Shown here: one piece after another, positions 5,623 to 53,216 of the stretch
Layout of the letters: each line of letters opens with the position of its first letter
How positions within the stretch are numbered: the first letter of the stretch is position 1
NCBI GenBank assembly: GCA_963821645.1
Contig: CAWGEQ010000051.1
Span: forward strand, 17,282-81,281
Reading direction: 5' to 3'
DNA length: 64,000 nucleotides
DNA from: an uncultured delta proteobacterium
GTDB taxonomy: Bacteria > Desulfobacterota > RBG-13-43-22
Notes under the pieces: generated by a model
Database searches by the model: none
Told to the model about the DNA's origin: nothing
What the model saw: only the letters and a program-made list of their open reading frames with translations
Translations under genes and position numbers: made by a program

Positions 5623-5657
5623 GTTCAAAGTTCAAAGTTCGGAGTTCGGAGTTAGAA
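5623..5657. repeat. Heptamer array: GTTCAAA GTTCAAA GTTCGGA GTTCGGA GTTAGAA
   Basis: Five consecutive 7-nt units immediately 3' of the DUF362 gene, read directly. Confidence 0.8.
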
Positions 5658-5726
5658 AAATCTTTCTGAAAGAAAGCCGGTTATATTGAAGCTCCCTGCA
5701 CAACAAAAAAAGTGAACAGGTATTGA

Positions 5727-7271
5727 ATGCCCAAGAATAAAACATTCCCTCTCCTCTACTGGAGGCGTATCTCCCAAACCCTTTTTCTACTTTTGTTTCT
5801 GGTCCTCTTCCGCCTGACCGACTATAAAGGGGTGGACCAGATCCCTTATGCCGTCAATATCTTTTTCCGCCTCGACCCCCTGGTGGCCGCTGCGGCCATG
5901 CTGGCCGCCAGGGCCGTGATCTCCCTGCTCCTTCTGTCCCTGATCGTCATCGGCCTGACCTTTATTCTGGGGCGTTTTTTCTGCGGCTGGTTTTGTCCTC
6001 TCGGTACTCTGTTGGACCTATCTCATTCGGTTGTTTTTCCCCCCAAAAAAAGAACACCGAACGTCCATCGCCGATCCTGGAAATATCTTCTCTTGGGGTT
6101 TGTTCTCGTGGCCGCCCTTTTCGGTCTCCCGACGGTCGGCTACTTTGATCCCTTTTCTCTCCTGGTACGAGGAATGGCCGTATCCATAGACCCTTTTTTT
6201 AATTTTACCCTTGTTTCCCTTTTTGATTCTTTATATCGCCTCGGTCCAGCCTGGTTATCCTCTGTCAGCGAATCGATCTATTCCTTTTTCAAGAATACCC
6301 TCTTAGCTTACAATCAAAAAGTTTTCACCCTGAGCCTATTATCCCTTTTTATCCTTTTATCGATTTTTGCCCTGGAACGCCTTGAAAGGCGCTTCTGGTG
6401 CAAAAATCTTTGTCCCTTGGGAGGACTCCTGTCCTTAATATCCAGATTTTCCTGGCTTCGGGGTCACGTTCAGAGTTCGTGCCGGGAGTGTGGGGTCTGC
6501 ACCAAAATATGCCGCATGGAGGCCATAGATCGGGACGGCGGTATCGCCGCCGGAGACTGCAACCTTTGCTTGGATTGTTTGGACCGCTGTCCGGACAAGT
6601 CCATTTCTTTTGTTTTTAATAAACCGAAGCAAAGACAAGCACCACTGGGCGTGTCCCGCAGGGCCTTTATAGGAACGCTTTCGACAGGACTTATCCTTCC
6701 AACCTTTTTGAACGTCCGGGCTGAAACCAAAATCCCGAATCCAACCCTGATCCGTCCCCCAGGGGCCCTTAAAGAAACTGAGTTTCTGGATCGATGTGTG
6801 CGCTGCGGCGAATGCATGAAAGTATGTATCAACAATGCCCTTCAGCCCTGCTGGCTGGAGGGTGGCCTGGAAGGCCTATTTTCTCCCCGTCTTTTTCCCC
6901 GCTTGGGTTATTGCGAGTTTAATTGTACCCTTTGCGGTCAGGTCTGCCCGACCGGGGCCATCCAAAAACTCCCTTTAATGGAAAAACAAAAAACCGTTAT
7001 CGGCGTCGCCTATTTCGATAAAAATCGATGCCTCCCTTATGCCAAGGGGACTCCCTGCATCGTCTGCGAAGAACATTGTCCCACGCCGGAAAAGGCCATT
7101 AAGTTCCGGGAGACTGCCGTGATTAATCCCCAGGGAAAAACGGTGACCATAAAACAACCCTATCTTCTTGAATCGTTATGTATCGGCTGCGGCATTTGTG
7201 AAAACAAATGTCCTTTAGAAGGGAAAGCCGGGGTATTGGTGATCAATAATCGCGAAGGGAAAAGGGCTTAA
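5727..7271 (+). CDS. Membrane polyferredoxin: a NapH/MauN-like N-terminal half fused to a NapG-like 4x[4Fe-4S] half
   Basis: FCGWFCPLG and FWCKNLCPLG are NapH-type CxxxCP motifs. There are several TM segments and six CxxCxxCxxxCP-type clusters. An internal SRRAFIGTLSTGLIL twin-arginine-like segment sits at about residue 310. Confidence 0.75.
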   Translation: MPKNKTFPLLYWRRISQTLFLLLFLVLFRLTDYKGVDQIPYAVNIFFRLDPLVAAAAMLAARAVISLLLLSLIVIGLTFILGRFFCGWFCPLGTLLDLSHSVVFPPKKRTPNVHRRSWKYLLLGFVLVAALFGLPTVGYFDPFSLLVRGMAVSIDPFFNFTLVSLFDSLYRLGPAWLSSVSESIYSFFKNTLLAYNQKVFTLSLLSLFILLSIFALERLERRFWCKNLCPLGGLLSLISRFSWLRGHVQSSCRECGVCTKICRMEAIDRDGGIAAGDCNLCLDCLDRCPDKSISFVFNKPKQRQAPLGVSRRAFIGTLSTGLILPTFLNVRAETKIPNPTLIRPPGALKETEFLDRCVRCGECMKVCINNALQPCWLEGGLEGLFSPRLFPRLGYCEFNCTLCGQVCPTGAIQKLPLMEKQKTVIGVAYFDKNRCLPYAKGTPCIVCEEHCPTPEKAIKFRETAVINPQGKTVTIKQPYLLESLCIGCGICENKCPLEGKAGVLVINNREGKRA

Positions 7272-7327
7272 TTGGCCACTGGATAGGCGGCTTGAAATGA
7301 TGAACGGGTCTGAAAGTCTGATCCCGG

Positions 7328-8002
7328 TTATAGTGTGTTTACTCTCAATTTCGCATCTGAAGGGCGAATATAGAGGGGGCGGAGTTCTTCCGCGGTGGAC
7401 TGAAAGCCTTGCTGAAATCGGGACCGAGCCAGTGCCCCCAGGACGGTTGGAGAAATAAGATGCAGATGGGGTTCGGGGAACAAGGCCTTTGAACCAAGGG
7501 CCTCCTTAAAAAAACCCTGATAAAGCCTGGCCCCATTGCCCACCAGAAGGACCGGCTCTTTGATTTCTTGAACCAGATTCTGGGGTTTCGTATTTCTGGG
7601 TTCCCCGGCTGGAATTATTTTCCCTTCGGAATCTGTCCGGAAATAAGCACAAAAAACCTCTTTCTTTCTGGCGTCGATAACGGGACAAATCAGGTAAGGA
7701 CAAAAGGTGAAGGAAGAGGCCAAGGCTTCCAGAGTGGAAATTCCGGCAACCGGTTTTTGGGTTGCCAAGGCCAGGCCTTTTACCGTGGCGATCCCGATGC
7801 GGAGACCAGTGAAACTTCCAGGGCCGACAGTCACGGCCCAGAGATCGACATCATGAAGGCCCCATCCTGCCTGTTCCAGAAGGAACAATAAAATCTTCCA
7901 TAACTGGTTGGCATGGGTCTTGGCCACCCGAACCTGGGCCTGGGCTTGAACCACTTCCCCTTCCAAAAGGGCCACCCCTGCGGTTTCGGTCGCCGTATCC
8001 AA
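7328..8002 (-). CDS. tsaB: tRNA t6A biosynthesis protein TsaB
   Basis: LDTATE...VTVGPGSFTGLRIGIATVKGLA. The start codon is TTG. Confidence 0.8.
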   Translation of the reverse strand: MDTATETAGVALLEGEVVQAQAQVRVAKTHANQLWKILLFLLEQAGWGLHDVDLWAVTVGPGSFTGLRIGIATVKGLALATQKPVAGISTLEALASSFTFCPYLICPVIDARKKEVFCAYFRTDSEGKIIPAGEPRNTKPQNLVQEIKEPVLLVGNGARLYQGFFKEALGSKALFPEPHLHLISPTVLGALARSRFQQGFQSTAEELRPLYIRPSDAKLRVNTL

Positions 8003-8098
8003 GGTCAGTATCTTCAGGTTTTTCCCCTTTTTCGGTTAATTAAAATTTTTCTAAAGTTCCGGAATCTGAGAGTCTAAAGAATCGGCATAGGGCCTTGA

Positions 8099-8170
8099 GT
8101 GTTAGGTATGAGGTATAAGGTTTTTCCTTTGAAGCCTGCACCTTATACCTTGAACCTTACACCTTACGCC
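8099..8170. repeat. Heptamer-periodic imperfect hairpin (AAGGT/ACCTT type)
   Basis: The left arm is GTGTTAG GTATGAG GTATAAG. The right arm is CTGCACC TTATACC TTGAACC TTACACC TTACGCC. It lies between rseP and tsaB. Confidence 0.8.
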
Positions 8171-8175
8171 CGTTT

Positions 8176-9324: not shown

Positions 9325-9347
9325 TGAATGTCTTCCTTATGTTCAGT

Positions 9348-9420
9348 GGTATTAGGTACGGGGTGTAAGGTAAACGGTATAGGGCTTTTCCTTGAACCTT
9401 ATACCTTGAACCCTGAACCT
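9348..9420. repeat. Heptamer-periodic imperfect hairpin (AAGGT/ACCTT type)
   Basis: GGTATTAGGTACGGGGTGTAAGGTAAACGGTATAGGG / CTTGAACCTTATACCTTGAACCCTGAACC. The right arm overlaps the last codons of dxr (..KKGSGFKV). Confidence 0.8.
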
Positions 9421-10574
9421 TTCTTTTCAATCCAGGAACCGGCCAGCTTCCTGGCCCAGGAATCGATAGTCAGAATTTCTTCCAGACCACCGGGGGAGAC
9501 AGACTTATGATTTCCCATAGTCTCTTCTATTACGGCTGGAATCCCCTCGAATGACAGCCCTCCATTTAAAAAAGAAAAAACAGCCGCTTCATTGGCGGCA
9601 TTCAAAACCACCGGCATACTTCCTCCAACCCTTCCCGCTTCCAGGGCCAGCCTCAAACAAGGGAATCTTTCCAGGTCCGGTCTGAAGAAGGTCAAACCGG
9701 GCATTTGGAACAGATCTAAAAAACCATGATTCAAGGGCAGCCGCTCGGGATAAGATAGGGCATAGGCTATGGGCATCATCATATCCGGGTTTCCCATCTG
9801 GGCCAAGATAGAACCATCCTGATATTCGACCATGGAATGGACGATACTCTGAGGATGGATACAAACGTCCACCTGGTCCGGAGAAACGCCGAATAACCAC
9901 TGGGCCTCCATCACTTCCAGTCCTTTATTCATCAGGGTGGCTGAGTCAATGGTAATCTTCGGGCCCATTTTCCATTTGGGATGATTCAAGGCTTGCCGGC
10001 CGGTAATGCCTTTCATCTCTTCAAGGGAGCACTTCCAAAAAGGGCCCCCTGATGCTGTGAGGATAATCCTTCGTAAGGCCTCTCGCTGCTGGCCCTGCAA
10101 AACTTGGAAAATGGCGCTGTGTTCGCTGTCAATGGGGAGAATAGTCACTCCATGTTTTCGGGCTTCTTCCACCATCAAGGCGCCGGCCATCACTAAGGGC
10201 TCTTTATTGGCCAGGGCGATGGTCTTTCCGGCCTTAATGGCCGCCAGGGTTGGCCCTAATCCAATCGCTCCGACCATGGCCGAGACAACCATGTCCACCT
10301 TATCCAGGGCGGCAATTTCTTCATGACCTTCGGGCCCCCAAAGGACCCTTAAGGGAAATCCCGGAAACCCGCCATCGGTTAATTCAACGGCTTCTTTCTC
10401 CGAAGCCACCGAAACCGCTTGAGGCTTAAAATAAAGGATCTGTTGGCGAAGAAGTTTTATATTTTTCCCGGCAACCAGTCCGATGATGCGAAATTGATCC
10501 TCAAATTGTTTCACCAGACTGAGGACCTGAACCCCGATAGAACCGGTACTGCCTAAGAGGGATAATACTTTCAA
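9399..10574 (-). CDS. dxr: 1-deoxy-D-xylulose 5-phosphate reductoisomerase
   Basis: LGSTGSIG..., LANKE, IDSEHSAIFQ and NHPKWKMG motifs. Confidence 0.95.
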   Translation of the reverse strand: MKVLSLLGSTGSIGVQVLSLVKQFEDQFRIIGLVAGKNIKLLRQQILYFKPQAVSVASEKEAVELTDGGFPGFPLRVLWGPEGHEEIAALDKVDMVVSAMVGAIGLGPTLAAIKAGKTIALANKEPLVMAGALMVEEARKHGVTILPIDSEHSAIFQVLQGQQREALRRIILTASGGPFWKCSLEEMKGITGRQALNHPKWKMGPKITIDSATLMNKGLEVMEAQWLFGVSPDQVDVCIHPQSIVHSMVEYQDGSILAQMGNPDMMMPIAYALSYPERLPLNHGFLDLFQMPGLTFFRPDLERFPCLRLALEAGRVGGSMPVVLNAANEAAVFSFLNGGLSFEGIPAVIEETMGNHKSVSPGGLEEILTIDSWARKLAGSWIEKKGSGFKV

Positions 10575-15275: not shown

Positions 15276-15304
15276 ATTATACTTAAAAATGATTTTTCAA
15301 GCAA
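15276..15304 (-). promoter_or_regulatory. Candidate sigma70 promoter of the rpsB operon (TTGCTT-N17-TATAAT)
   Basis: On the minus strand the -35 is at 15299-15304 and the -10 at 15276-15281, with an exact 17-nt spacer. It lies about 110 nt upstream of the rpsB ATG. Confidence 0.5.
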
Positions 15305-15311
15305 GGAAAAA

Positions 15312-15824
15312 CTATGGATTTTTTTCCAAGGCCAGTAGTCTCTTCTTGAGCGGCAGCCCGCCGCCAAAACCGACCAAATCTCCTCGGGCACCGATGACCC
15401 GATGGCAGGGGACCACAACAGGGACCGGGTTGTTATGATTGGCCAGACCGACGGCCCGGCAGGCCTTGGGACGGCCGATGGTCCGGGCTATTTCACCATA
15501 GCTTCGGGTTTCTCCATAGGGGATTTTCGTCAGGGTCTCCCAGACCTGAAGTTGAAAAGGGGTCCCTTGGAGGTCCAGGGGGACGGAAAAGGCAACTTTT
15601 CTGCCGGTTAGATATTCATCCAATTGTCGATAAAGATCCTCAAAGGGGTCGGGGTTTTGGGTAAAAAAATTGGGTTGAAAATGAGTCAGGATCTTTTCAA
15701 AAAAGGATTCCACTGAATGGGTCGGGAAGGAGAGATAGCACACCCCTTTCTCCGTAGCCGCCACATAGACTCTCCCCAAGACCGGAAACTGCTTGCTGTC
15801 ATAGTATACCGTTTTGCTGTTCAT
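15312..15824 (-). CDS. ogt: Methylated-DNA--protein-cysteine methyltransferase
   Basis: IPYGETRSYGEIA...VVVPCHRVIG active-site motif. Confidence 0.9.
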   Translation of the reverse strand: MNSKTVYYDSKQFPVLGRVYVAATEKGVCYLSFPTHSVESFFEKILTHFQPNFFTQNPDPFEDLYRQLDEYLTGRKVAFSVPLDLQGTPFQLQVWETLTKIPYGETRSYGEIARTIGRPKACRAVGLANHNNPVPVVVPCHRVIGARGDLVGFGGGLPLKKRLLALEKNP

Positions 15825-18097: not shown

Positions 18098-18106
18098 CCC
18101 CAAAAA

Positions 18107-18175
18107 GGTATAAGGTTTAAGGTAGAGGGTCATCCAAGGAGAGAGGTTTACCTTGAAACTTGAATCTTGAACCTG
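18107..18175. repeat. Heptamer-periodic imperfect hairpin (AAGGT/ACCTT type)
   Basis: GGTATAAGGTTTAAGGTAGAGGGT ... TACCTTGAAACTTGAATCTTGAACCT. It lies between the M24 peptidase gene and the oxidoreductase gene. Confidence 0.8.
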
Positions 18176-18205
18176 ACTCAGCCGTTTATCATTGGAGGTT
18201 CAACT

Positions 18206-21708: not shown

Positions 21709-21778
21709 TGTAAAGGTGTACGGTTCAAGGTTTAGGGTTCAAGGTAAAACCCTACGCCTTGCGCCCTGCACCTTATGG
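21709..21778. repeat. Heptamer-periodic imperfect hairpin (AAGGT/ACCTT type)
   Basis: GTAAAGGTGTACGGTTCAAGGTTTAGGGTTCAAGGTA / ACCCTACGCCTTGCGCCCTGCACCTTATG. It lies between convergent genes. Confidence 0.8.
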
Positions 21779-24750: not shown

Positions 24751-24790
24751 TCAGCAAAAAACGAATGTCGAAAGAAGGAAAAAACAAATA

Positions 24791-24829
24791 ACTTCATGAT
24801 TCGAAATTCGTTATTCGATATTCGACATT
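24791..24829. repeat. TTCGATA-type heptamer element (single arm): CTTCATGATTCGAAATTCGTTATTCGATATTCGACATTC
   Basis: Read directly. It lies between the two cytochrome genes. Confidence 0.8.
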
Positions 24830-24874
24830 CAAGTTTTTTATTAAACCCTCATTCTTTTAAAAGGATTCCCTGAA

Positions 24875-34658: not shown

Positions 34659-35390
34659 TTATTTTGACTTCTTTGTTACACCCGGAGTAGTTAATGACCA
34701 TCCTGTTTTCATAGGAATGATCAAAGAAAGGGCCTTCCCCTGGGTAGTCCAATGAAGCCGAATCTTTTCCGGTAGGGTGTTGCCTCCGGGCCACTGATCG
34801 ACCCATTCTCCTTTTTCTTCGGTCGGGTCCTTAAAATAATATTCAAAATAAAAATCGTCCAACTGGTCTAATAGCTTTATCTCCCTTTTGATCTCTTGCC
34901 CTACCCTGCTTTCCGAGGCCATAAGGGACCATTTCCCGTTGTCCCCTTCGGCGACACGATAGGAAACGACCGAATAACCGATTTCCCCTTCCCAGATGGA
35001 ATAGTTGGTTGTAACTTCCAGGGAAGTCCGATCTCCCGTAAAATTAAGTTTGGTCTCTCCATTGACTTCCCGGGTCATAGGAATGACCGATTGGATTTGA
35101 GATTCGATCACGGTCAAAGAGGCCCTGACCCTTTCCAGAGAATCTATCTTTTTCCCCCCGGCTTCAACCGACCGAAAGCCAAGTCTCAGAACGCCCATGA
35201 GGATGAGAATCATAATCCCGAGAATGGAAATGGAAATCATGAGTTCCAACAGAGTGAAACCGGCAGAAGGACCTTTGAATATCGAATATCGAACACCGAA
35301 TTTCGAATCACGAAGTAGTTTTTCCCTTAGACATTCGGTATTTGACATTTTATTTTTGCCCTTAAAATAAACCCTCGAATTTCGAATCAT
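34659..35390 (-). CDS. gspJ: Type II secretion minor pseudopilin GspJ (start uncertain; the leader runs through repeat elements)
   Basis: SAGFTLLELMISISILGIMILIL prepilin motif, followed by SLERVRASLTVIESQIQ. The first 43 codons lie in TTCGATA-type repeats. Confidence 0.7.
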   Translation of the reverse strand: MIRNSRVYFKGKNKMSNTECLREKLLRDSKFGVRYSIFKGPSAGFTLLELMISISILGIMILILMGVLRLGFRSVEAGGKKIDSLERVRASLTVIESQIQSVIPMTREVNGETKLNFTGDRTSLEVTTNYSIWEGEIGYSVVSYRVAEGDNGKWSLMASESRVGQEIKREIKLLDQLDDFYFEYYFKDPTEEKGEWVDQWPGGNTLPEKIRLHWTTQGKALSLIIPMKTGWSLTTPGVTKKSK

Positions 35391-35443
35391 GAAGTTGCCA
35401 TCCCCTTCGACATTCAGTATTCGTTATTCGATATTCAACATTC
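35277..35443. repeat. Two adjacent TTCGATA-type heptamer hairpin elements (35277-35348 and 35375-35443)
   Basis: GAATATCGAATATCGAACACCGAATTTCGAATCACGAAG...GACATTCGGTATTTGACATTT and TCGAATTTCGAATCATGAAG...TCGACATTCAGTATTCGTTATTCGATATTCAACATTC. Confidence 0.85.
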
Positions 35444-35461
35444 TCTTTTGATCTTCTTGAT

Positions 35462-35893
35462 CTATACCAGTTTTTGAGCCAACTTCTGCGTCCTCAGTGT
35501 CATCGATCTTTTCTTGAATCCCTTTGTCCAGGATACGGTCACTGCGATTTCGTACATCCTGACCTGAAGTTCTTCCGTCCTGTCCTTCAAGCTTTTTGAA
35601 ATAGAGACCTCAAATTGATAGCCATCATCCGTGACCCCCTTCCAGGTCTTTTCGGCAATTTCATCTTCGGACAAGACTTCCCGCATCTTGGATTGGGCCG
35701 CCAGGGTACCGGCCACATAATCTTCAGAAAGCGAAATGGACCTCAGGTCTATGGAAAAAAGCTGAATCACGGCAACAACGGCTATCCCCAAAAGGGACAA
35801 GGCCACCAGGACCTCCAGGAGGGTAAAACCAGCTTCAAAATAAACCCTTGAATGTCGAATTTCGAACACCGAATCTCGAATCATGAAGTTCAT
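35462..35893 (-). CDS. gspI: Type II secretion minor pseudopilin GspI
   Basis: EAGFTLLEVLVALSLLGIAVVAVIQLF prepilin motif. The protein is about 120 aa after the motif. The leader is encoded by a repeat. Confidence 0.75.
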   Translation of the reverse strand: MNFMIRDSVFEIRHSRVYFEAGFTLLEVLVALSLLGIAVVAVIQLFSIDLRSISLSEDYVAGTLAAQSKMREVLSEDEIAEKTWKGVTDDGYQFEVSISKSLKDRTEELQVRMYEIAVTVSWTKGFKKRSMTLRTQKLAQKLV

Positions 35894-36008
35894 CTTTTCC
35901 CTTCGACATTCGTTATTCGATATTCGATATTCGATATTCGCTTTTTTCCCTCCCTTTTTCGAATCATGCAGTGGTGTCTTTCCTTTCGATATTCGACATT
36001 CGACATTC
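35850..36008. repeat. Two adjacent TTCGATA-type heptamer hairpin elements (35850-35940 and 35958-36008)
   Basis: GAATGTCGAATTTCGAACACCGAATCTCGAATCATGAAG-loop-CTTCGACATTCGTTATTCGATATTCGATATTCGATATTCG. The second copy is shorter. Confidence 0.85.
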
Positions 36009-36038
36009 TATCTTCGTTCTTTCTTCCCCCTGCCCTTT

Positions 36039-36521
36039 TCACTGGACCACCACTGCCCCCATCAAAGGATCCAGACGGATCAAAACCGTTTTTTTCTTGC
36101 TGGATATTTGAAAATCGGCGCCTTCCCCTCCCCAATTAGGCTCGAAGATGAGACGATATTGGCCGCTTATCATCTCCCCGGCCGCAGGATCGATTATTTT
36201 GAATTCCAAATTGGAAGGGATTTTTCTGCTCTTGCGTCCTTCTATGCCGTACGCTTTGGTGTCTAAATCAATGGCCACCACCTCTTGTTTTCCGTTGATT
36301 TTGGACAGATTTCTGGCCTGCCTTAAAGTAGCCGAAAACTCTCGGACGGTGGCCTGGAGTCTGGCAGAGGACAAAAAGTTGGAGAAATAAACCGTAACCA
36401 AGCCCAAGATCATCAGGCTTAGGATCATAACGATAATCAATTCCAGTAGGGTAAAACCGGATTCATTTTTTTTAATGCGAAAATTAGAATATCGAATATC
36501 GAATATCGAATATCTAATCAT
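36039..36521 (-). CDS. gspH: Type II secretion minor pseudopilin GspH
   Basis: ESGFTLLELIIVMILSLMILGLVTVYF prepilin motif. The ATG overlaps the stop of the upstream ORF (ATGA) and lies in a repeat arm. Confidence 0.75.
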   Translation of the reverse strand: MIRYSIFDIRYSNFRIKKNESGFTLLELIIVMILSLMILGLVTVYFSNFLSSARLQATVREFSATLRQARNLSKINGKQEVVAIDLDTKAYGIEGRKSRKIPSNLEFKIIDPAAGEMISGQYRLIFEPNWGGEGADFQISSKKKTVLIRLDPLMGAVVVQ

Positions 36522-36525
36522 GAAG
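36485..36525. repeat. TTCGATA-type arm (GAATATC x4 ..TAATCATGAAG), left partner of 36937-36980
   Basis: Read directly. It is complementary in style and sequence to the arm at 36937-36980. Confidence 0.8.
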
Positions 36526-36961
36526 TTAAAGTCTTTTTGCTTTTTTCTTTTTCTTTCGCTGTCCGAATGCTCTTCACAAAAATTGAAATCAGCTCGTTAT
36601 TCTCATTGAACAGAGATTCAAACTTTGATTTGTTCTTAACCATGTTTGCCTTCTCGATCATAAGCAGCCAAATCCTTGTTTCCCGCAATTCCTTAAGACA
36701 TACTTTCATCTTATGGATAAAATCAACACGAGATTCTGCGCTTTGCGCTTCACCATAATTGGAGGCGGGAGATGTTCCACTCCGAATGAGTTGGCCGGAA
36801 ATATGATTTCCGGCTTTCGTCTTCGGCAAGCTCTCGGCCTCACGAATAATTCGGACAGCAAAATCTATCAATCGATCTTCGATATCAAATACTTTGTTTC
36901 CCCCCGTCTTGTGCAATTCATTTCCTGTTGAATAGTCTTCACTTCGATATTCGTTATTCAT
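36518..36961 (-). CDS. Four-helix-bundle protein (TIGR02436; the '23S rRNA intervening sequence protein' family)
   Basis: ISGQLIRSGTSPASNYGEAQSAESRVDFIHKMKVCLKELRETRIWLLM matches the family signature. Confidence 0.85.
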   Translation of the reverse strand: MNNEYRSEDYSTGNELHKTGGNKVFDIEDRLIDFAVRIIREAESLPKTKAGNHISGQLIRSGTSPASNYGEAQSAESRVDFIHKMKVCLKELRETRIWLLMIEKANMVKNKSKFESLFNENNELISIFVKSIRTAKEKEKSKKTLTS

Positions 36962-36980
36962 GATTCGATATTCGACATTC
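36937..36980. repeat. TTCGATA-type arm (CTTCACTTCGATATTCGTTATTCATGATTCGATATTCGACATTC), right partner of 36485-36525
   Basis: Read directly. It contains the start codon of the four-helix-bundle ORF. Confidence 0.8.
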
Positions 36981-36998
36981 TCTTTTGATCTTTTTATT

Positions 36999-42498: not shown

Positions 42499-42582
42499 AT
42501 TCTCTCCCTATTCTCCCTGAGAACTAATCCCTAATCCCAACTGATCGGGAGAAGAACCCCGAATTTCGAATCATGAACCAAT

Positions 42583-43222: not shown

Positions 43223-43699
43223 ATGAAATCCTTGCTTACCTCAACCCGTACCTTTATTACCCGACGCCTTTTTATCACCGGGGGTATTCTTTCCGGGATG
43301 GGAGCGCTCTATTTAATCCTCAGGGGGATTTTTTCTTTTCTTCAACAACCCGCTTCCCGGACCAGGCCGACCCGGTTTGCTTTACTGGGTCGTCAGGAGT
43401 TGACCCAGAGTCGAACCGACCTTCTGTTTCGCCAAGGGGTATGGTTGATCCGGGATGATCGAGGCTGGTATGGTCTGATCAATGTCTGTACTCACCTTGG
43501 ATGTCAACCGGCCTTTGACCCCAAAATGAGGATATTGATCTGTCCCTGTCACGGCAGCCGGTTCGATCTTAAGGGAAATGTCCTCAAAGGCCCGGCGGCC
43601 CGTCCGCTCCAGAGGCCTTTTCTCTGGATAGGGTCCAAACAAGAAATCCAGGTGGATCTCCGGCGATTGGTAGATTCCGGTTTTAGATTGCGGACATGA
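43223..43699 (+). CDS. Rieske [2Fe-2S] protein
   Basis: CTHLGC...CPCHGSRF motifs, plus an N-terminal Tat-like/TM segment. Confidence 0.85.
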   Translation: MKSLLTSTRTFITRRLFITGGILSGMGALYLILRGIFSFLQQPASRTRPTRFALLGRQELTQSRTDLLFRQGVWLIRDDRGWYGLINVCTHLGCQPAFDPKMRILICPCHGSRFDLKGNVLKGPAARPLQRPFLWIGSKQEIQVDLRRLVDSGFRLRT

Positions 43700-44335
43700 A
43701 AAAACCTTCTTGGGACAATAGCTTTTGGAAACACCTGCATCCGATACGGCTTCAGCCGGAGTTCATCGGCTTTACCTATACCTTTTGTCTGGGAGGCTGC
43801 ACCTTCCTGCTTTTTCTGCTGCTGGGTATAAGCGGCCTGTTGCTGTCCTTCTATTATCTTCCTCTTGCGGACAAGGCCTATCCGAGCATAACCGAGATCA
43901 CCTATCTGGTCCCCTACGGAGGATTTATACGCAATATCCATTACTGGTCCGGCCAATTCATGGTCATCGCCTTACTCCTCCACATGATTCGGGTCTTTTA
44001 TTATCGGGCCTATCGACCTCCCCGGCAGTTTAATTGGTTGGTTGGCCTGCTCTTGCTGGTTTTGACTTTTGGAGAAGATTTCAGCGGGTATGTCCTGCGT
44101 TGGGATGGCGACACCTATCCGGCCGCCCTGGTGGCCGTGAATCTGGTTCGAGAAATCCCCTGGATCGGCCCTTTTCTTCATTTGCTTTTGGTCGGCGGGG
44201 ATCAAATCGGAGAGACCACGGTCCTTCGTTTTTATATTTTGCATTGTATGCTCTTACCCGGCCTGATGCTCTTTTTGATCTTCTATCACTTCTGGCGGGT
44301 GCAGAAAAGACGGGTTGGCCGGAAAACCGCTTTGA
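43696..44335 (+). pseudogene. Cytochrome b (b6-like N-terminal haem-binding subunit) with an apparent +1 frameshift about 10 codons before the inferred stop
   Basis: GGFIRNIHYWSGQFMVIALLLHMIRVFY and LRFYILHCMLLPGLML carry the haem-ligand His residues. Shifting frame near 44301 gives ..FWRVRKDGLAGKPL* ending at 44335. The uncorrected ORF runs on into dctP. Confidence 0.75.
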
Positions 44336-44474
44336 TCAAATTCCCCGGCCCCTATCCTCGGTTCCTGAAGATCTTTCTCCCAATTTTTCTCCTTGACCCG
44401 CTTTCCCCCCTATTTTATACTCCTGCAACAAAAAGCATTTTTATTCAAAAACACACTAAATCGGGAGGAACATT

Positions 44475-45506
44475 ATGGGAAAGAAATGCATCGGATCGGT
44501 CGTCATCCTTATCCTTCTCCTGGGGGTGGTCCATTGGGGCCTTTGTGCGACTTATAAGCCGGAATACAAAATGAGCATCGTGGTCGGTCCCACGGGACCC
44601 TGGGGAGAGGGTGCGGCCCGATTCGCCGAAGCGGTGAGGAAGGCCACGGAAGGCCGTATCAACATCAAACCCTATTACAGCGGCCAGCTCTTCGCCGGAA
44701 AACAGACCAACGAATTTCTCCTGATGAAACAGGGGGTCATCGATTTCGCCCTCGGCTCAACCATAAACTGGTCCACCACCATCAAGGAGCTGAACCTCTT
44801 TTCACTGCCCTTTTTCTTTCCCAATTATAAGGCCCTTGATTCCGTGGAGCACGGCGAAACCGGAAAACATCTCATAAAAATCATCGAAGATAAAGGGGTG
44901 GTCGTCCTCGGTTGGGGAGAAAACGGCTACCGGGACCTGACCAACAGCAAACGACCCATAAAAAGGCCGGAGGACCTCGAAGGCCTCAAGATCCGGGTCG
45001 TGGGTTCCCCCATCTTTATCGATACCTTTAAGGCCATGGGCGCCAACCCCGTATCCATGAACTGGGGCGAAGCCCTTTCCTCCTTCCAGCAGGGAACGGT
45101 GGACGGGCAGGAAAACCCGGTGGTTTCCGTCATTATCCCCAACAAATTATGGCAGGTCCATAAATACATGACCGCCTGGGGTTATGCCATCGATCCCCTC
45201 ATCCTCGGTATGAGCAAGGAGGTCTGGGATGGTCTCCCGATGAAAGACAAGGAGGCCATAAAAAAAGCGGCCGCAGAGACCGTCACCTGGCAGAAAAAAG
45301 GGGCCCGGGAGGGGCTGGAGGGGACCATGCCGGCCCTGGAGCTGCTCAGAAAAAACGGCATGGAGGTTACGGTCCTCTCACCGGATCAGAGCAAGGCCTT
45401 TATCAATAAGACCCGGCCCGTCTACGAAAAATGGGAGAAGGAAATAGGACCCGATCTGGTTAAACTGGCTGAAAAAGAGATACAACAAGCGGGCAAGAAA
45501 AGATAA
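44475..45506 (+). CDS. dctP: TRAP transporter substrate-binding protein (DctP family)
   Basis: A signal peptide, then ..IKPYYSGQLFAGKQTNEFLLMKQGVIDFALGS and LKIRVVGSPIF. Confidence 0.9.
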   Translation: MGKKCIGSVVILILLLGVVHWGLCATYKPEYKMSIVVGPTGPWGEGAARFAEAVRKATEGRINIKPYYSGQLFAGKQTNEFLLMKQGVIDFALGSTINWSTTIKELNLFSLPFFFPNYKALDSVEHGETGKHLIKIIEDKGVVVLGWGENGYRDLTNSKRPIKRPEDLEGLKIRVVGSPIFIDTFKAMGANPVSMNWGEALSSFQQGTVDGQENPVVSVIIPNKLWQVHKYMTAWGYAIDPLILGMSKEVWDGLPMKDKEAIKKAAAETVTWQKKGAREGLEGTMPALELLRKNGMEVTVLSPDQSKAFINKTRPVYEKWEKEIGPDLVKLAEKEIQQAGKKR

Positions 45507-45513
45507 AAATATT

Positions 45514-45742
45514 GGGTTACGGGTTGCGGGTTGTCAATAAGAACTACAGCGATTTTTATTACCAATGCGCTTTTTTATCCGTCATTTCGGCATGCTTTAA
45601 GCCGGAATCCAGAGACTTTGATTTTCTCATTTTCTTGAAAACCTGGATTCCCGATAAAGACATTCGGGAATGACGAATAAAGTGTCGCTATAGTATTAGA
45701 CGAGTTTAATTTTTCTTCTAACGAACCTCGCAACTCGCAACA
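45514..45742. repeat. Composite: heptamer arms GGGTTAC GGGTTGC GGGTTGT (45514-45534) and CGAACCT CGCAACT CGCAACA (45722-45742) flanking a ~100-nt palindromic element (45579-45675)
   Basis: The inner element is CCGTCATTTCGGCATGCTTTAAGCCGGAATCCAG ... CCTGGATTCCCGATAAAGACATTCGGGAATGACG, whose arms are reverse complements with mismatches. Confidence 0.75.
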
Positions 45743-45764
45743 GAGATATTTCAACAATTTTAAT

Positions 45765-46232
45765 ATGCTCAAAAAAATTTTTGCCCAGGGCGAAGAGGCG
45801 GCCGGCGTAGTTCTTCTTCTGGCCATGTGTCTCCTGGCCTTTGCCAATGTGCTGACCCGCTATTTTATCCGTTATTCCTTTGCCTTTACCGAAGAAATAG
45901 AAGTGGCCTGTCTGGTCTGGCTGACCATGCTGGGTGCGGCCGCCGGATTTCGAAGGGGGATACACCTTGGTTTTAATCTGCTGGCCCTTCGTTTTCCGGC
46001 CTTTGGGAGAAAGGCCCTCTTACCCCTGGCCTCCCTCTTGACCCTGGCGACCATCGGTCTTTTGACCTGGTTCGGCCTCTCCCAGGTCCAGGATGAATTC
46101 GCCTTAAACGTCCGGACAGAGGCCTTGGATATCCCCCAATGGTGGTACACCCTGTCCATTCCGGTGGGCGGGATTTTGATCATCCTGCGCTCGCTGGAGG
46201 CCGCCTGGAAAGAGTTTAAGGGAAGGGCCTGA
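45765..46232 (+). CDS. dctQ: TRAP transporter small permease (DctQ)
   Basis: 155 aa and 4 TM segments, positioned between dctP and dctM. Confidence 0.8.
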   Translation: MLKKIFAQGEEAAGVVLLLAMCLLAFANVLTRYFIRYSFAFTEEIEVACLVWLTMLGAAAGFRRGIHLGFNLLALRFPAFGRKALLPLASLLTLATIGLLTWFGLSQVQDEFALNVRTEALDIPQWWYTLSIPVGGILIILRSLEAAWKEFKGRA

Positions 46233-47516
46233 TGGAATCGGTCCTCCTCTTCTTTCTGATTTTTTTATTCCTCCTGCTTCTGGGTGTGCCGGTGGCCACC
46301 TCCCTGGGCTTTACCTCCATTCTGCTCATCTGGGACTATCACCTGGGGATCCGGGTCATCGCCTCCAACTTTTACGCCAATGTGGCCAAGTTTCAACTCC
46401 TGGCCCTGCCCTTCTTTATCCTGGCCGGCCTTATCCTGGACCGTTGCGGGATATCGAAGAGGCTTATCCGTTTTGTCAGTCTGCTGGTAGGGCCGATCCC
46501 CGGTGGACTGGCCGTCGTGACCATCATCGTCGGGGTCATCTTTGCCGGTATCTCCGGATCGGGCCCGGCAGACACCGCCGCCCTGGGGGTCATCCTCTTT
46601 CCGGCCATGGTGTCCATGGGCTACCACCGGGGCTACACCGCGGCCCTGATCGCCTCTTCCGGTTCTCTGGCCATTGTCATACCCCCGAGCATCGCCTTTA
46701 TCATCTACGGAGTCATCACCAGCACCTCCATCCCGGCCCTTTTTGCCGCCGGCGTCATTCCGGGGGTCATCACCGCCCTGTTTCTGATCATCCCTTCGGT
46801 TTTCATTGCTCGAAAACAGGGCTGGAAAGGGGAGAGATGGGGGACGGCCGGTGAAGTCTGGCAGGCCTTTAAAGAGGCCCTCTGGGGTCTATTGGCCCCG
46901 GCTGTCATTCTAAGCGGGATTTATGGCGGGATCTTTACGGCCACCGAAGCGGCCGTGGTGGCGGTTTTTTACGGCCTCTTTTTGGGAATGTGTATCTATC
47001 GAAACCTGACGCTTAAGGCCCTGTACGATATCTTCAAAGATGCGGCCTTGTCTTCGGCCGTAGTCATGTTCATTGTGGCCTTTGCCGGCCTCTTTTCCTG
47101 GACCGGTTCCACCCTGGGAGTCATGGACAAGGCCTCATCCAGTCTTCTTTCTCTTTCTTCCAATCCCATGGATCATCCTTCTATTGATCAACGTCATGCT
47201 TTTTATCGCCGGCATGTTGATGGACGCCATTTCCATCTATTATGTCTTTCTACCTATCCTCATCCCCATCATGGCCTTTTTCCATTGGGACCCGGTCTGG
47301 TTCGGGGTCGTCATGACCCTCAATCTGGCCATCGGTCAGATCACGCCGCCGGTGGCGGTAAATCTCTATGTGATTGCCAACATCGCCAACCTTTCCCTGG
47401 AACAAATTTCCAAATCCGTTATCCCTTTTGTGGCCATTATGTTAGCGGCCCTGCTGGTCATCATCTTCTTCCCGGGTCTGTCCACTTTCCTGCCGAGTTT
47501 TTTTGGATTAAAATGA
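46232..47516 (+). pseudogene. dctM: TRAP transporter large permease (DctM) with one apparent +1 frameshift near 47165-47170
   Basis: The frame switches at ..LLSLSSNP|WIILLLINVMLFIAGMLMDAISI within a CCC run. Both halves are typical DctM. Confidence 0.85.
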
Positions 47517-47537
47517 TAAAAGAAAAGGGCAGGAGAG

Positions 47538-47850
47538 GTTGAGGTTCAAGGTTCAAGGTTTAGAGTTCAGAGTTCGGAGAAAACATCCTCTGTAGAAGCG
47601 TTGTAGGGGCGGGTTTGAAACCCGCCCCTACGGGGGCACGAAGGCTTATTTTGAAAACCGAATATTGAATTTAGAATCAGGAAGAATTTATTTCCCCCTT
47701 ACTTCGATATTCGATTTAAGCTTTTTTCTGAGCTTTCAGCTTTGAGCTTTGTTTTTCTTTGAGCTTTGAGCTTTCAGCTTTGAGCCTGGTTCTTTTGAGC
47801 TTTCCGCTTTATTCACTTGCACCTTGGACCTTGTACCTCGCGCCTTCTTC
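47538..47850. repeat. Composite of at least 5 repeat modules between and into convergent genes
   Basis: The modules are GTTCAAG-type heptamers (47538-47579), the hairpin GTAGGGGCGGGTTTGAAACCCGCCCCTAC (47603-47631), a TTCGATA-type element (47658-47716), AGCTTTS heptamers (47730-47786) and TTGCACC TTGGACC TTGTACC TCGCGCC (47817-47844). Confidence 0.8.
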
Positions 47851-50573: not shown

Positions 50574-52414
50574 TTAACCGGAAGAGTCCTCTGGACCTCG
50601 GGAAAGAAAAAGGGGCAATCCTATGGTCACCGTAGTGCCCTGATTTTCCTGGCTTTGGACCTCTAAGGTCCCTTCATGGGCCTGGATTATCTTTTGGGTA
50701 ATGACCAATCCTAACCCCACCCCTTTTTCTTTGGTGGTATAATAGGGGGCCAAAATTTTTTTCAATCCTTCCCGGGGTATGCCTTTACCCGTATCGGCCA
50801 CCGAGATTTCCAGGAAATCTCTGGTGAAGTTCGGAGTGGCGCGTTATCCGTTTTGAGATGGATTTTCTTTCACTCCGAACTCCGAACTCCGAACCCCGAA
50901 CCACTCTTCACCGTCAGAAGGATATCTCCCCCGCCCGGCATGGCCTCCAGGGCATTATTGAAGATATTGAGGAAGGCCTGGGTAAGTTGAAAACGATCAC
51001 AGCGGATCAGGGGAACTTGCGCTTCCCATTTTTTTATAATCCGAATTCCCTTTGATCTGAACTCCTCTTCCATCACCTCCAGCACATAGTCCAAGATTTC
51101 AAAGATCGATTGTTCTTCCAATTTGATTTCCGGAGGCTTGGCCATCATTAAAAACTGACCGATTATTTGATTGACTCTGGCGATTTCATTGCGAACGATT
51201 TGAGTAAACCGTTCATATTCCTTTTGCTCCTCTAAAACGGGCCAACGAAATTCCTGTTGCAGCCTCTGCACCACCAGGCCAATGGCATTGAGGGGATTTT
51301 TGATTTCGTGGGCCACCCCGGCCGCCAATTGCCCCATGGCCGATAGTTCTTCTTTTAAACGGATCTGTTCCTCCATATCTCTCAATTTTCGAAGGTGACG
51401 GCCCTGGAACCGAAAGATAAAAAATAGTCCCATAAGTCCCGCGGCAAAAAGAACCATACTCGTCAGGATTATGGTTCTCCTGCCCTGATCCAGGATGGGA
51501 TTGACTTCTTTCAAGGAAAGCCCTAAGCGTACCCGGCCTAGGTCCTTACCAGCAGGTCGGAAGGATCGGACTATTTCTAAAAACTCTCCCTTTTTCCCTT
51601 TAATCCAGAAAAGACCGGGATCTCCGGAGCGGACCTGCTTTCTCAGGGATGTTGGGTCCGAATCAACCAAGAGCGCTTCACCGGTTTGGGCAATTATTTT
51701 TCCGGAAGACCCTTCAACCCTCAGGTAAGCGATATTCCCCTTCCCGGAAAAATCTTCCAGGAATCCCTGAATAATAATCTGTTGCCCCAAAGCGATGTAT
51801 TCTTCGGAAGAAAGCAGGATCAGGATCGCCCCGTGGCCATGGCGGCGGGCCACGGCCACGGCTAAGGGAAGGGTTTGACGTAAGGGTCCCTCTCCCCTGA
51901 AGACAGCCAAACGGGTCTTCCCGGTCAAGACCTTTTGGAAAAAAGGGGGCCTGTTTCTTAATGGTTCGGGTAAGAGGGGCAAGGCGAAATCTTTTGGCCC
52001 CGAATTCAAAAAATAGATTTGAGACAACCCCATCGGGCCGATCCTGTTTTTCAAGGATCGAGGATCGAAGGGCTTATGGGAGGACTCCTGATCAAGCTGC
52101 AAGGCCAGATTGATGAGACGTTCGATAAGCAAATCCTCAACACCCAAGACATCTTCCGAACCTTCGATCGTTACGGCGGACGATGGAAGACGGTTCTGGA
52201 AAAAGACGGCCAGCCAATTCCCGGAGTTTTTTTCCAGCCCTTTTATGACGACCAGGGCTTCTGTTTCTAAAATGTTAAACAGTTGACTGCGGGTCCGTTG
52301 GATTTCAAAATAGCCGTTGATCAGGAAAATGCCGATCAAGACGGTCATGACGAAAAACAGATATAAAGGGTATTGGATAGGTCCATGACCGGATATTTTG
52401 CGGGGCAATATCAT
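50574..52414 (-). pseudogene. Sensor histidine kinase (NtrB/ZraS/AtoS-like HisKA plus HATPase_c) whose HATPase_c domain is interrupted
   Basis: AAGVAHEIKNPLNAI is the H box and NIFNNALEAMPGGGDILLTVKS the N box. A stop follows. ...NFTRDFLEISVADTGKGIP...KGVGLGL resumes in another frame. Confidence 0.8.
50823..50912. repeat. CCGAACT-type heptamer hairpin element lying inside the kinase gene
   Basis: GGTGAAGTTCGGAGTGG ... CACTCCGAACTCCGAACTCCGAACCCCGAACCACTCTTCACC. Confidence 0.8.
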
Positions 52415-52537
52415 GGCTTAATATGAAAATAGATTTTTAACCGCCCTTAGCCTCTATATGGGCTCTGTAGGGAGAGGGGTATTTTCATGCTTCGTCGGTG
52501 ACCGCTTCAGGCGGGCATGAGAGCTTAGTACGAAAAA

Positions 52538-52602
52538 CCGAATATTGAATTTCATTGTTTTGGCTTTCCTTCGAAATTCGTTATTCGATATTCATCATTC
52601 GT
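52538..52602. repeat. TTCGATA-type heptamer hairpin element
   Basis: CCGAATATTGAATTTCATTG...CCTTCGAAATTCGTTATTCGATATTCATCATTCG. Confidence 0.8.
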
Positions 52603-53083
52603 TTTTATATTCAGACCCAGGCCCTCTCCTGCCCTGCCCCATTCCGTGTCCCATGCCCGGTCCCATTCCACGACGGAACCCCATACCAGGCCGAAATCCC
52701 AAATCGGTTTCAGGAGGTAACTTTTCCCGTTGTTCCGGGGTGAAGACCTTCAGGGCTTCCTGATAATAAAAAAGGGAGCGCTCATGGGCCTGGAGCAAAA
52801 GGGATTGGATCTGGCGGCGTAATGCTTCTCCCGGTTCCCCTTTATTTTCTTCCGGGGTCAAGGTCCTGAGTTCCATCCGCTTCATCATTATTTTTTTTCG
52901 CCCTTGAGCTGATTCCTGATGAAACCGACTTTTCAGTTCTTTGAGGCTTTGGGCCTGCTCCGGCGTGAGATTCAGATTTTCCGCCCAAGGCTCCGGGTTA
53001 GGAGAAGCAGATAAGACCTCGATTCCGGCTAAGTGAAGGCCCAGGCCAACGATCCAGAGAAAACAGATAATCTTTTTTACCAT
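52595..53083 (-). CDS. Spy/CpxP/ZraP-family periplasmic protein with a Gly/Met/His-rich C-terminal tail
   Basis: It has a signal peptide (MVKKIICFLWIVGLGLHLAGIEVLSA) and LTPEQ motifs (LTxxQ). The tail is GFRPGMGFRRGMGPGMGHGMGQG. The longer ORF to 53164 starts inside a repeat arm. Confidence 0.7.
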   Translation of the reverse strand: MVKKIICFLWIVGLGLHLAGIEVLSASPNPEPWAENLNLTPEQAQSLKELKSRFHQESAQGRKKIMMKRMELRTLTPEENKGEPGEALRRQIQSLLLQAHERSLFYYQEALKVFTPEQREKLPPETDLGFRPGMGFRRGMGPGMGHGMGQGRRGPGSEYKNE

Positions 53084-53112
53084 AGGCAAGTCACATCCAA
53101 GAAAATAGGCGC

Positions 53113-53216
53113 AAGGACCAGGGTTCAAGGTCCAAGGTGCGAGGTTAGAATGCAGTTTCTTCATTTTTTTAATCTTGAAGCCTTGAGCCTTAAGCCTTGT
53201 GCCTATGCCTCAAGCC
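53113..53216. repeat. Heptamer-periodic imperfect hairpin (AAGGT/CCTTRAG type)
   Basis: CAGGGTTCAAGGTCCAAGGTGCGAGGTTAGAATGCAG ... CTTGAAGCCTTGAGCCTTAAGCCTTGTGCCTATGCCTCAAGCC. The right arm overlaps the glgA 3' end. Confidence 0.8.

Follow-up and report, generated by a model that had tools for sequence, protein, structure and literature searches.

We analyzed a 64,000-nt stretch of DNA (the window) from an uncultured delta proteobacterium (Desulfobacterota, RBG-13-43-22; assembly GCA_963821645.1, contig CAWGEQ010000051.1). It carries many tandem arrays with a period of 7 nt, which often form the two arms of a hairpin. We consider it fairly likely that these arrays are full-length members, members without an open reading frame (ORF), or derivatives of a selfish cassette that resembles the intervening sequences (IVSs) of 23S rRNA genes and that has a PF05635 gene between inverted arms with a period of 7 or 8 nt. 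The full-length cassette (~0.45-0.5 kb) would comprise a purine-rich 5' arm of about 4-5 tandem 7-nt units (8-nt units in other subfamilies), the PF05635 gene, and a complementary 3' arm. Most copies in the window would be ORF-less (arm, short loop, arm; 60-190 nt), and some would be solo arms. An earlier reading by a model without database searches (the sequence-only reading) had described a window-wide family of hairpins with a constant architecture, and this description holds: the window hairpins have a purine-rich 5' arm, a loop, and a complementary 3' arm.

We found one full-length cassette in the window, as judged from Pfam, a PF05635 profile, PDB entry 2RLD, and arrays reported by Tandem Repeats Finder:

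36478..36981, minus strand: full-length cassette
36981-36937, minus strand: 5' arm of the cassette, GAATGTCGAATATCGAATCATGAATAACGAATATCGAAG
36525-36478, minus strand: 3' arm of the cassette, CTTCATGATTAGATATTCGATATTCGATATTCGATATTC
within 36961-36518, minus strand: PF05635 ORF (23S_rRNA_IVP or "S23p", an Avd-like four-helix bundle), exactly between the arms

The protein matches PF05635 in Pfam (E = 1.8e-14), our custom profile of the family (E = 1.5e-47), and PDB 2RLD (E = 1.4e-17), an entry with five chains. The sequence-only reading had treated the arrays at 36485 and 36937 as a short hairpin and the various flavors of repeat as anonymous hairpins. Instead, these two "arms" are 410 nt apart, flank a PF05635 gene, and are the two ends of a ~0.5-kb cassette.

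Relatives of the window's PF05635 protein are found in Candidatus Brocadia, Syntrophobacterales, Desulfobacteraceae, Nitrospira, Rhodothermales, Verrucomicrobiota, and Planctomycetota. The relatives with matching flanks, which come from all of these groups but the Verrucomicrobiota, have 55-81% amino acid identity. Many of the relatives that we examined, and the closer ones most clearly, have the window's GAATATC/GATATTC heptamers on both sides of the gene. The shared upstream units are GAATATCGAACAAGGAATAATGAATGTCGAAGG (...GAATATCGAATATCGAACAAGGAATAATGAATGTCGAAGG) and the shared downstream units are ACTTCATAATTCGAAATTCCTTGTTCGATATTCG (ACTTCATAATTCGAAATTCCTTGTTCGATATTCGATATTC). Variants of the arms shift on both sides together: for instance, TCGAAT/ATTCGA becomes TAGAAT/ATTCTA, or CCAATAT/ATATTGG.

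The hairpins of the window with a TCATGA core, when read on the strand of the flanking genes, run from GAATGTCGAAGGG through a short loop to ACTTCATGATTCG / ACTTCATGATTCGAAATTCG, which is both ends of the cassette minus the gene. From this match in sequence, we are confident that hairpins of this flavor represent two PF05635 cassette ends joined without the gene. They are listed here with the strength of their folding, scored as z relative to dinucleotide shuffles (two z values are a range or a pair):

35268..35446, minus strand: two adjacent ORF-less hairpins, GAATATC/TCATGA (about 35277-35345 and 35372-35443), z -5.2/-5.3
35835..36025, minus strand: two ORF-less hairpins, GAATATC/TCATGA (about 35850-35940 and 35955-36022), z -3.6/-2.8
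24756..24837, plus strand: ORF-less hairpin, GAATATC/TCATGA, orientation in agreement with the plus-strand genes, z -3.4
47658..47716, minus strand: ORF-less hairpin, GAATATC/TCATGA, downstream of secDF, z -2.5/-3.5
52538..52603, minus strand: ORF-less hairpin, GAATATC/TCATGA, between LTXXQ-family and histidine-kinase genes, z -2.9
42540..42577, minus strand: half element, in sequence the outer motif CCCAACTGATCGGGAGAAGAACC joined to one TCATGA-type arm end

The pair at 35268..35446 lies between pseudopilin genes; a larger fold nests both hairpins, and their junction, GAATGTCTAAGGG-loop-ACTTCGTGATTCGAAATTCGGTGTTCGATATTCG, corresponds to the cassette ends. At 35835..36025, CGAATAACGAATGTCGAAGGG-AAAAGATGA-ACTTCATGATTCGAGATTCGGTGTTCGAAATTCG matches both ends of cassette L122, and the hairpin at 35955-36022 has a shortened 3' arm. 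(L-numbers are compared loci of other genomes or contigs, and X-numbers are sequencing runs.) The hairpin at 24756..24837 follows a multihaem cytochrome gene, precedes a T-run, and is conserved in L033. Related copies at other sites (L001 7786-7850 and L033 7972-8035) are 87-88% identical to it. The outer motif of the half element is as found downstream of L035-type cassettes, and motif TTCTCCCAACTAATTGGGAGAAGAACC comes after cassettes L035, L037, and L038 (L045 and L064 have variants of it).

The arrays themselves are not in doubt. Tandem Repeats Finder reported period-7 arrays at essentially all of the coordinates of the sequence-only reading. A scan at lag 7 found 23 runs with at least 15 of 21 matches in the window, far above the shuffled controls (mean 0.43 and maximum 3 in 30 Markov-1 shuffles), and other lags gave 0-6 runs each, except for the harmonic at 14. 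The 23 runs correspond to roughly 19 elements, which makes the earlier count of at least 20 loci about right if arms are counted. The placement at gene boundaries was largely borne out: no run (0/23; p = 2.7e-9) had its midpoint in a gene core (positions over 120 nt away from any ORF end, which make up 58% of the window), and the exception is the hairpin at 50823-50912, which lies inside a histidine-kinase gene. Comparable arrays are present at orthologous sites in independent metagenome-assembled genomes (MAGs), and the same kind of array is found in a complete Brocadia genome, in plasmids of cultured cyanobacteria, and in metagenomes, which rules out an assembly artefact, a concern that had been raised for this contig.

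About 12 sites in the window are strong hairpins and about 5 are single arms. The lowest z scores are those at 8090 (-5.1/-6.2), 21705 (-5.6), 35270, 53105 (-4.7 on the plus strand), and 45505-45750 (-4.4 to -8.0, with -8 on the minus strand); the sites at 9340, 24750, 35835, 47650, 52530, and 50815 range from -2.5 to -3.7. The arrays at 5623, 47538, 47730-47786, 47816-47846, and 58204 have no complementary partner and z is about 0, so the window contains a family of hairpins plus solo arms. Most of the paired loci fold far better than the shuffles, these five arrays do not, and not all of the loci that had been listed are paired, as several are single arrays and the one at 42559 is the half element. 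The arrays do translate into a 7-residue periodic peptide (IRYSIFD), and they do inflate ORF calls: the SecDF call gains about 36 array codons, and pseudopilin ORFs "start" within hairpin loops.

As the sequence-only reading had suggested, we checked close genomes for presence/absence polymorphism, and we found replacement and loss. Among genomes that are ~90% identical, the flanks of the hairpins align at orthologous sites but the hairpins do not. The PF05635 gene of the window's cassette is absent from the orthologous site in L001. Conversely, L034 carries ~560 nt of extra sequence at the window's 30.45-kb site, and this insert consists of a PF05635 gene (23S_rRNA_IVP, E = 9e-39) with repeat arms on both sides. 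Positions 47648-47732 are missing from a contig of soil DNA (run X25), and at the 47658-47716 site both L014 and L007 have a different hairpin. At 52538..52603, L001 has a longer version and L014 has the 3' arm alone. In L033, the number and sequence of the units at 18102..18179 are fully remodelled between flanks that are 94% identical. At 53105..53216, L001 and L014 have conserved the loop, and the arms differ in unit number and sequence. L034 retains the hairpin at 21709..21778 with an altered 3' arm, and L033 has in its place a 268-nt stretch that carries other arrays and a TCATGA-type hairpin. L014 has an unrelated heptamer hairpin at the 58200 site. L033 also has a 165-nt hairpin insert (15300-15480, corresponding to ~28080 in the window) that is absent from the window and from L034. 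In this insert, heptamer arms of the type AGCNNNC/GCTNNNN lie between two small hairpins of the CATCCGGAAA type, and the junction has a possible TAATTA duplication. In the cassettes, the number of units varies by steps of 7 nt, and several registers allow the arms to pair.

The same comparisons turned up larger changes and another element. The ~5 kb at 42502-47592 are shared with L014 and L007 and are replaced by ~250 nt in L001; both breakpoints are in repeat-rich intergenic spacers. An element that resembles a miniature inverted-repeat transposable element (MITE), with inverted ends CGTAAAAAG/CTTTTTACG, is found at 61590-61750 in the window, at 13740-13880 in L001, and at 1778-1913 in L143, where it appears to interrupt a PF05635 gene. 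By eye, the L001 site that corresponds to the window's cassette also holds sequence with ends like these.

For a broader survey of PF05635 genes, we fetched 80 loci for each of two proteins (the one in the L034 insert and the one in the window), or 160 loci. In the first set, the inverted repeats that flank the gene exceed the 95th percentile of shifted controls at 75 of 77 loci (97%). The arms are periodic in 130 of 302 cases (43%), with a period of 7 nt (67 arms) or 8 nt (61 arms) and essentially nothing else, as compared to 5 of 352 controls. Where both arms are periodic, they always have the same period (21 cassettes with 7/7 and 20 with 8/8). The arms have a median length of ~40 nt and a median of 4.2 units, and they are 82% complementary. 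A purine-rich 5' arm is present in 116 of 125 cassettes and in 11 of 12 window hairpins, and the GC skew of this arm is positive in 111 of the 125 cassettes.

Unlinked copies are homologous from arm to arm and no further: for instance, L115 and L118 are 91% identical over 454 nt. In one Brocadiaceae MAG, two copies are 97% identical over 442 nt, where one of the contigs ends, and their upstream flanks are unrelated. Among nine cassettes from different phyla, the arms (outside of anchor motifs) are 73% identical, as compared to 75% for the gene and 55% for third codon positions, and the inner arm sequence, which is a fixed order of variant units, is conserved together with the gene across phyla. 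Judging from these alignments, the arms and the gene are one unit of homology, which occurs at unrelated sites within and between genomes and phyla. The PF05635 gene has the same orientation as its upstream neighbor in 110 of 136 cases (81%) and as its downstream neighbor in 114 of 146. Within the window, the miniatures that can be oriented agree with the direction of the flanking genes (5/5 by script, with further ones that agree by eye). The gene order indicates that the cassette sits sense-oriented inside or at the end of host transcription units.

Some of the surveyed cassettes have additional features. RNA-derived contigs from Brocadia contain cassette L115. In runs X2 and X5, such contigs connect position 1637 of L115 (within the PF05635 gene) with position 1883 (in the 3' arm), so that 245 nt are missing. 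This shorter form is probably an internally deleted paralog that is intermediate between the full cassette and the miniatures. Cassettes L116, L118, L119, and L126, from Brocadiaceae and Desulfobacteraceae, are nested in a further inverted repeat, CATAAGCGCTAAGTT ... AACTTAGCGCTTATG, which suggests insertion into, or association with, another palindromic element. In L105, from a KSB1 MAG, two matches to the Acido-Lenti-1 small RNA (2486-2531 and 3059-3104) adjoin a PF05635 cassette.

The window also contains arrays of other flavors. Where no strand is given, none was assigned:

8090..8171: AAGGTNN/ACCTTNN hairpin between two minus-strand genes (Tandem Repeats Finder; z -5.1/-6.2)
9348..9423: AAGGTNN/ACCTTNN hairpin whose 3' arm enters the stop-proximal end of ORF 9399-10574 (z -2.9/-3.7)
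18102..18179: AAGGTNN/ACCTTNN hairpin between two plus-strand genes (lag scan and folding)
21709..21778: GGTTCAA/AAGGT-type hairpin after the adenine deaminase gene, then T7 (z -5.6)
53105..53216: AAGGNNN/NNNCCTT hairpin (z -4.7 on the plus strand)
50823..50912, minus strand: (GTTCGGA)n hairpin within a histidine kinase's HATPase_c domain (ORFs and domain matches)
45505..45750: heptamer arms GGGTTRC (45514-45534) and GCAACTC-type (45722-45742) (z -4.4/-8.0)
5617..5659, plus strand: single (GTTCRRA)5 array, no complementary partner (z about 0)
47535..47580, plus strand: single GGTTCAA/GTTCRGA array at the stop of ORF 46232-47542 (Tandem Repeats Finder, lag scan, and folding)
47724..47846: AGCTTTS and CACCTTG arrays, direct rather than hairpin (Tandem Repeats Finder, lag scan, and folding)
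58200..58235: single (ATCCAGY)3-4 array (Tandem Repeats Finder and lag scan)

A scan of metagenomes for (AAGGTNN)3AAGGT found 80 loci. A complementary partner was found downstream in 17 of these and upstream in 1. The loops are either short, as in hairpins (3-132 nt), or longer (284-707 nt), which includes gene-size spacings. A PF05635 ORF adjoins the array in 5 of the 80 loci, so the AAGGT flavor of the window has gene-bearing counterparts elsewhere. For instance, L221 consists of ...AAGGTCCAAGGGGGCAAGGTTCAAGG, the PF05635 gene, and ACCTTGAAC...ACCTTTTACCTTTTACC. On this basis, the AAGGT flavor is probably a member of the PF05635 cassette family. We found no match of the AAGGT, GTTCRRA, AGCTTTS, GGGTTGC, or ATCCAGY units to the arms of the 160 sampled cassettes, and we place the remaining flavors in the family by their architecture only.

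Three of these loci deserve comment. The last ~36 codons of the secDF ORF call (47736-47846) are heptamer arrays. For more distant relatives of SecDF (83-88% identity), the alignment stops at residue ~853-855, which leaves the true C-terminus of SecDF uncertain. The interior of 45505..45750 is 187 nt long, highly structured, and ORF-less, and it had no match in Rfam; this single-copy locus has orthologs only in L007 and L014 and may represent a cassette that carries an RNA cargo.

On the coding (minus) strand, the 5' arm of the hairpin at 50823..50912 has four units and the other arm has one. The hairpin splits the histidine-kinase gene (50574-52414, minus strand) into a HisKA ORF (50870-52414) and a HATPase_c fragment (50574-50801). 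In six relatives, the insert is in frame and its lengths differ by multiples of 3; the copy in the window is out of frame by +2 nt, which gives the two ORFs. Because the unit is 7 nt long, slippage would switch the frame of the gene, and the frameshift in the window is possibly an on/off switch, or else an assembly error. The hairpin keeps its position in relatives with as little as ~74% DNA identity, and by this measure it is old. At this site, the heptamer array of L003, L002, and L006 is interrupted by additional GC-rich sequence of 31 to ~150 nt, and the frame is preserved.

The genes of the window encode SecDF, multihaem cytochromes c, a type II secretion or type IV pilus-like operon, and a histidine kinase. 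An exact-match search with the adenine deaminase protein gave no record. No rRNA, tRNA, or known RNA family was identified in the window. The closest relatives of its SecDF are from uncultured Thermodesulfobacteriota or "delta proteobacterium" MAGs from soil, peat, and groundwater (94-96% protein identity and ~90% DNA identity). We considered a cyanobacterial host and rejected it: the window has a single HIP1 site, and its gene content and nearest relatives are those of an uncultured soil Thermodesulfobacteriota. Period-7 arrays, often an arm with a complementary arm, also surround secDF in distant Syntrophorhabdaceae, UBA6106, UBA7527, and one Gemmatales MAG; the secDF loci that we examined from Desulfobulbus lack such arrays.

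The sequence-only reading had named the heptameric STRRs (short tandemly repeated repetitive sequences) of cyanobacteria as the closest analog. The analogy holds, and it extends to the gene. A plasmid protein search with the protein of the L034 insert gave matches mainly in Nostoc, Calothrix, Trichormus, Anabaena, and Scytonema. In 4 of the 6 Nostocales plasmid loci that we examined, the PF05635 gene is bracketed by inverted heptamers:

Nostoc punctiforme plasmid: AGGAGTC/GACTCCT arms
Trichormus variabilis plasmid: AGAATTC/AGGAGTC types
Calothrix brevissima plasmid: GGGTGTA/TACACCC arms
Calothrix PCC 7716 plasmid: TTAGCTG/CAGCTAA-type arms

In the two copies from Nostoc 7120, the PF05635 gene is preceded by the 3' end of an ISL3 transposase gene, and we saw no complementary upstream arm. 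STRRs are 7-bp repeats that can form hairpins, for instance between hupS and hupL, and their function is described as unknown, with proposed roles in transcript stability or translational coupling (PMC2670836). This corrects the earlier statement that STRRs are not usually described as paired hairpin arms. Like the arrays in the window, STRRs are tandem 7-nt units that are mostly intergenic, dispersed in many copies, hairpin-capable, and of several flavors per genome. However, their hosts are heterocyst-forming cyanobacteria instead of Thermodesulfobacteriota, and their descriptions in PMC2670836 and PMC4692102 draw no link to a gene cassette. The units of STRR1-3 (CCCCAGT, TTGGTCA, and CAACAGT) have no tandem copy in the window, in any rotation or on either strand.

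The second known system is the S23p-type IVS of Coxiella burnetii and Leptospira. The IVS in the 23S rRNA of Coxiella measures 428 nt and carries an ORF for S23p; its terminal inverted repeats pair into a 28-bp stem that is cut by RNase III, and it is considered a selfish element acquired horizontally (PMC4990558). The cassettes share the PF05635 ORF (in one element only in the window), terminal inverted repeats that would form a long stem, and the size (~450-500 nt). On the other hand, IVSs lie in helices 9, 25, or 45 of 23S rRNA, and the window's elements lie between protein-coding genes and, once, inside one. Also, the arms of the cassettes are 7- or 8-nt tandem arrays, and excision by RNase III, a feature of S23p-type IVSs, would be putative here. 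It was proposed long ago that the ORF of the IVS serves mobility. STRRs and S23p-type IVSs are two known kinds of sequence that apparently have not been connected before. In the literature that we searched, we found neither STRR-type repeats linked to PF05635 cassettes nor anything relevant on heptamer repeats in Deltaproteobacteria, Geobacter, or Syntrophus, and none of the titles found under the names of the PF05635 family is about flanking repeats.

Other repeats are less similar. Repetitive extragenic palindromic (REP) sequences, along with the bacterial interspersed mosaic elements (BIMEs) and hairpin-forming REP doublets (REPINs) that they compose, are also short imperfect palindromes with inverted paired arms that occur in many copies at gene boundaries in transcription units. 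But REPs lack tandem heptamers, and the gene associated with them, for a Y1 (IS200/IS605-like) transposase (the REP-associated tyrosine transposase, or RAYT), lies at a separate location, whereas the arms here enclose the gene for a four-helix bundle. The resemblance to MITEs lies in a gene-bearing full form with far more numerous internally deleted copies that keep the inverted ends, as the TCATGA hairpins share ends with the gene-bearing cassette, and in the presence/absence polymorphism in close genomes. Unlike in MITEs, the enclosed PF05635 gene is no recognizable transposase, and the ends are tandem arrays of variable length. Heptameric simple sequence repeats (SSRs) are over-represented in many bacterial genomes, with slippage suggested (Mrazek et al. 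2007, as summarised in PMC4692102). Of these, GGGAATC of Xanthomonas and GGGGAYT of Nostoc are also enriched in intergenic regions, sometimes occur as inverted pairs, and vary between close species (PMC4692102), but they were interpreted as forming G-quadruplexes, and most of the window's units are not competent to form these. A gene cassette is implicated for the window's units, and neither G-rich unit occurs in tandem in the window.

How might such a cassette persist within operons? Upon read-through transcription of the host operon, the arms would zip into an imperfect stem of 30-45 bp. As with the IVSs of 23S rRNA, RNase III would cleave the stem, and the insert would be tolerated between cistrons. 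By analogy to IVS stems, it is probable that the two arms anneal within the host transcript and undergo the same processing. The cassettes show a sense-orientation bias and lie within operons without having their own promoter, both of which suggest that they live off host transcripts. ORF-less copies would persist as neutral or mildly useful hairpins for processing or stabilization. The PF05635 protein itself may bind the repeated arms. Its homolog Avd is pentameric and binds nucleic acids, and we know of no function for PF05635 genes other than the Avd of diversity-generating retroelements (DGRs). In a Bordetella phage, cDNA synthesis by the DGR reverse transcriptase requires Avd as an accessory protein (bioRxiv 10.1101/2023.10.23.563531).

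Several observations weigh against the selfish-cassette account. Within the window, just the GAATATC/TCATGA flavor is tied to a PF05635 gene; the AAGGT flavor is tied to it only via metagenomic look-alikes, and we found no gene-bearing counterpart of the GTTCGGA, AGCTTTS, GGGTTGC, or ATCCAGY flavors. No remnants of PF05635 were detectable in the other hairpins of the window or of loci L001-L034, so the ORF-less forms could be precursors or targets instead of derivatives. Comparisons of filled and empty sites gave no clean target-site duplication: the "empty" sites usually contain other sequence, which is replacement and not clean insertion. There is no recurrent mobility gene in the 1.5-kb flanks of the 160 loci, whose only recurrent neighbors are syntenic housekeeping genes, and 0 of 20 sampled cassette loci are inside an rRNA gene. 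Mismatches in the arms are as often G·U (208) as A·C (207), which is no sense-strand RNA signature; the complementarity may be kept at the level of DNA, or it may be unselected for RNA pairing. Arms that are shifted by one unit pair nearly as well as in the best register (22.4 vs. 24.0 of 28), with weak register-specific mirror symmetry. A simple scan for terminators called 0 of the hairpins as such and overlapped just the short inner stem at 50830-50857. Together, these last three results weaken a purely RNA-level constraint. The RNA data are assembled contigs, which are uninformative about processing, and the soil metatranscriptome is sparse over 46-54 kb.

We weighed three other explanations. 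The arrays could be a mutational by-product, if replication slippage, with 7 nt as a favored unit, expands heptamers and turns ordinary hairpins and terminators periodic independently, with a secondary association with PF05635. Over-represented heptameric SSRs have been attributed to slippage (PMC4692102), and slippage fits with unit numbers that differ between orthologous sites and between arms (4 vs. 1 at 50823-50912), with the pairing of shifted registers, and with the single arms. But slippage accounts for changes in length and not for origin or spread. The order of the inner arm units is conserved with the gene across phyla, far above the identity at synonymous sites; the period is 7 or 8 only and is identical on both arms, with strict polarity; the homology of unlinked copies stops at the ends of the arms; and TCATGA hairpins at different loci share a non-periodic junction. 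We consider this explanation improbable. We also think it unlikely that the hairpins are REP-like elements that serve the host in termination, protection of mRNA 3' ends, or operon stoichiometry, with the PF05635 gene as an occasional passenger. Their rapid replacement and loss among ~90%-identical genomes does not fit with such a role, nor do the terminator scan or the lack of an excess of G·U over A·C. T-runs follow two hairpins (21709-21778 and 24756-24837) on the coding strand, as expected for host-serving elements, but several other T-runs are on the wrong strand. The strict placement at gene boundaries, the sense orientation, and the maintenance of 50823-50912 in place down to ~74% nucleotide identity do suit a host function, as do the roles proposed for STRRs (PMC2670836).

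Lastly, each arm might be a row of putative 7- or 8-bp protein sites in DNA, similar to a terminal inverted repeat and possibly bound by a pentameric PF05635 product, with complementarity that arises from the inversion of the sites. The symmetry of G·U and A·C, the units with a conserved core of 3-5 nt and a variable remainder (median 4.2 units per arm), and arm sequence that is conserved beyond the needs of pairing would all fit, as would the five chains in 2RLD and the aid that the Avd homolog gives to the DGR reverse transcriptase (bioRxiv source above). We nevertheless find this very unlikely, as ORF-less copies are far more numerous than genes and the sense-orientation bias indicates a constraint at the level of the transcript.

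A broader proposal, which we put forward as a doubtful one, is that STRR-type hairpins with a period of 7 or 8 nt, including the classical STRRs, would be footprints of one pan-bacterial class of mobile cassettes. An Avd-like pentamer of PF05635 would recognize the arms and drive or license their spread in a way unlike that of known transposases, and the IVSs of 23S rRNA would be copies that landed in rRNA.

The arms have practical consequences, as they inflate ORF calls, break assemblies, and can lie in frame inside genes. Masking them would help the annotation of MAGs from soil and sediment. PF05635 genes are annotated as "S23 ribosomal" or "four helix bundle" proteins in many bacterial genomes. 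STRR heptamers have been used in cyanobacterial fingerprinting for decades. Their origin and function are still described as unknown (PMC2670836). If STRRs and PF05635 genes are halves of one element, then both puzzles would become jointly testable, via binding, processing by RNase III, and mobility, and the intervening sequences of 23S rRNA would gain a natural source population.

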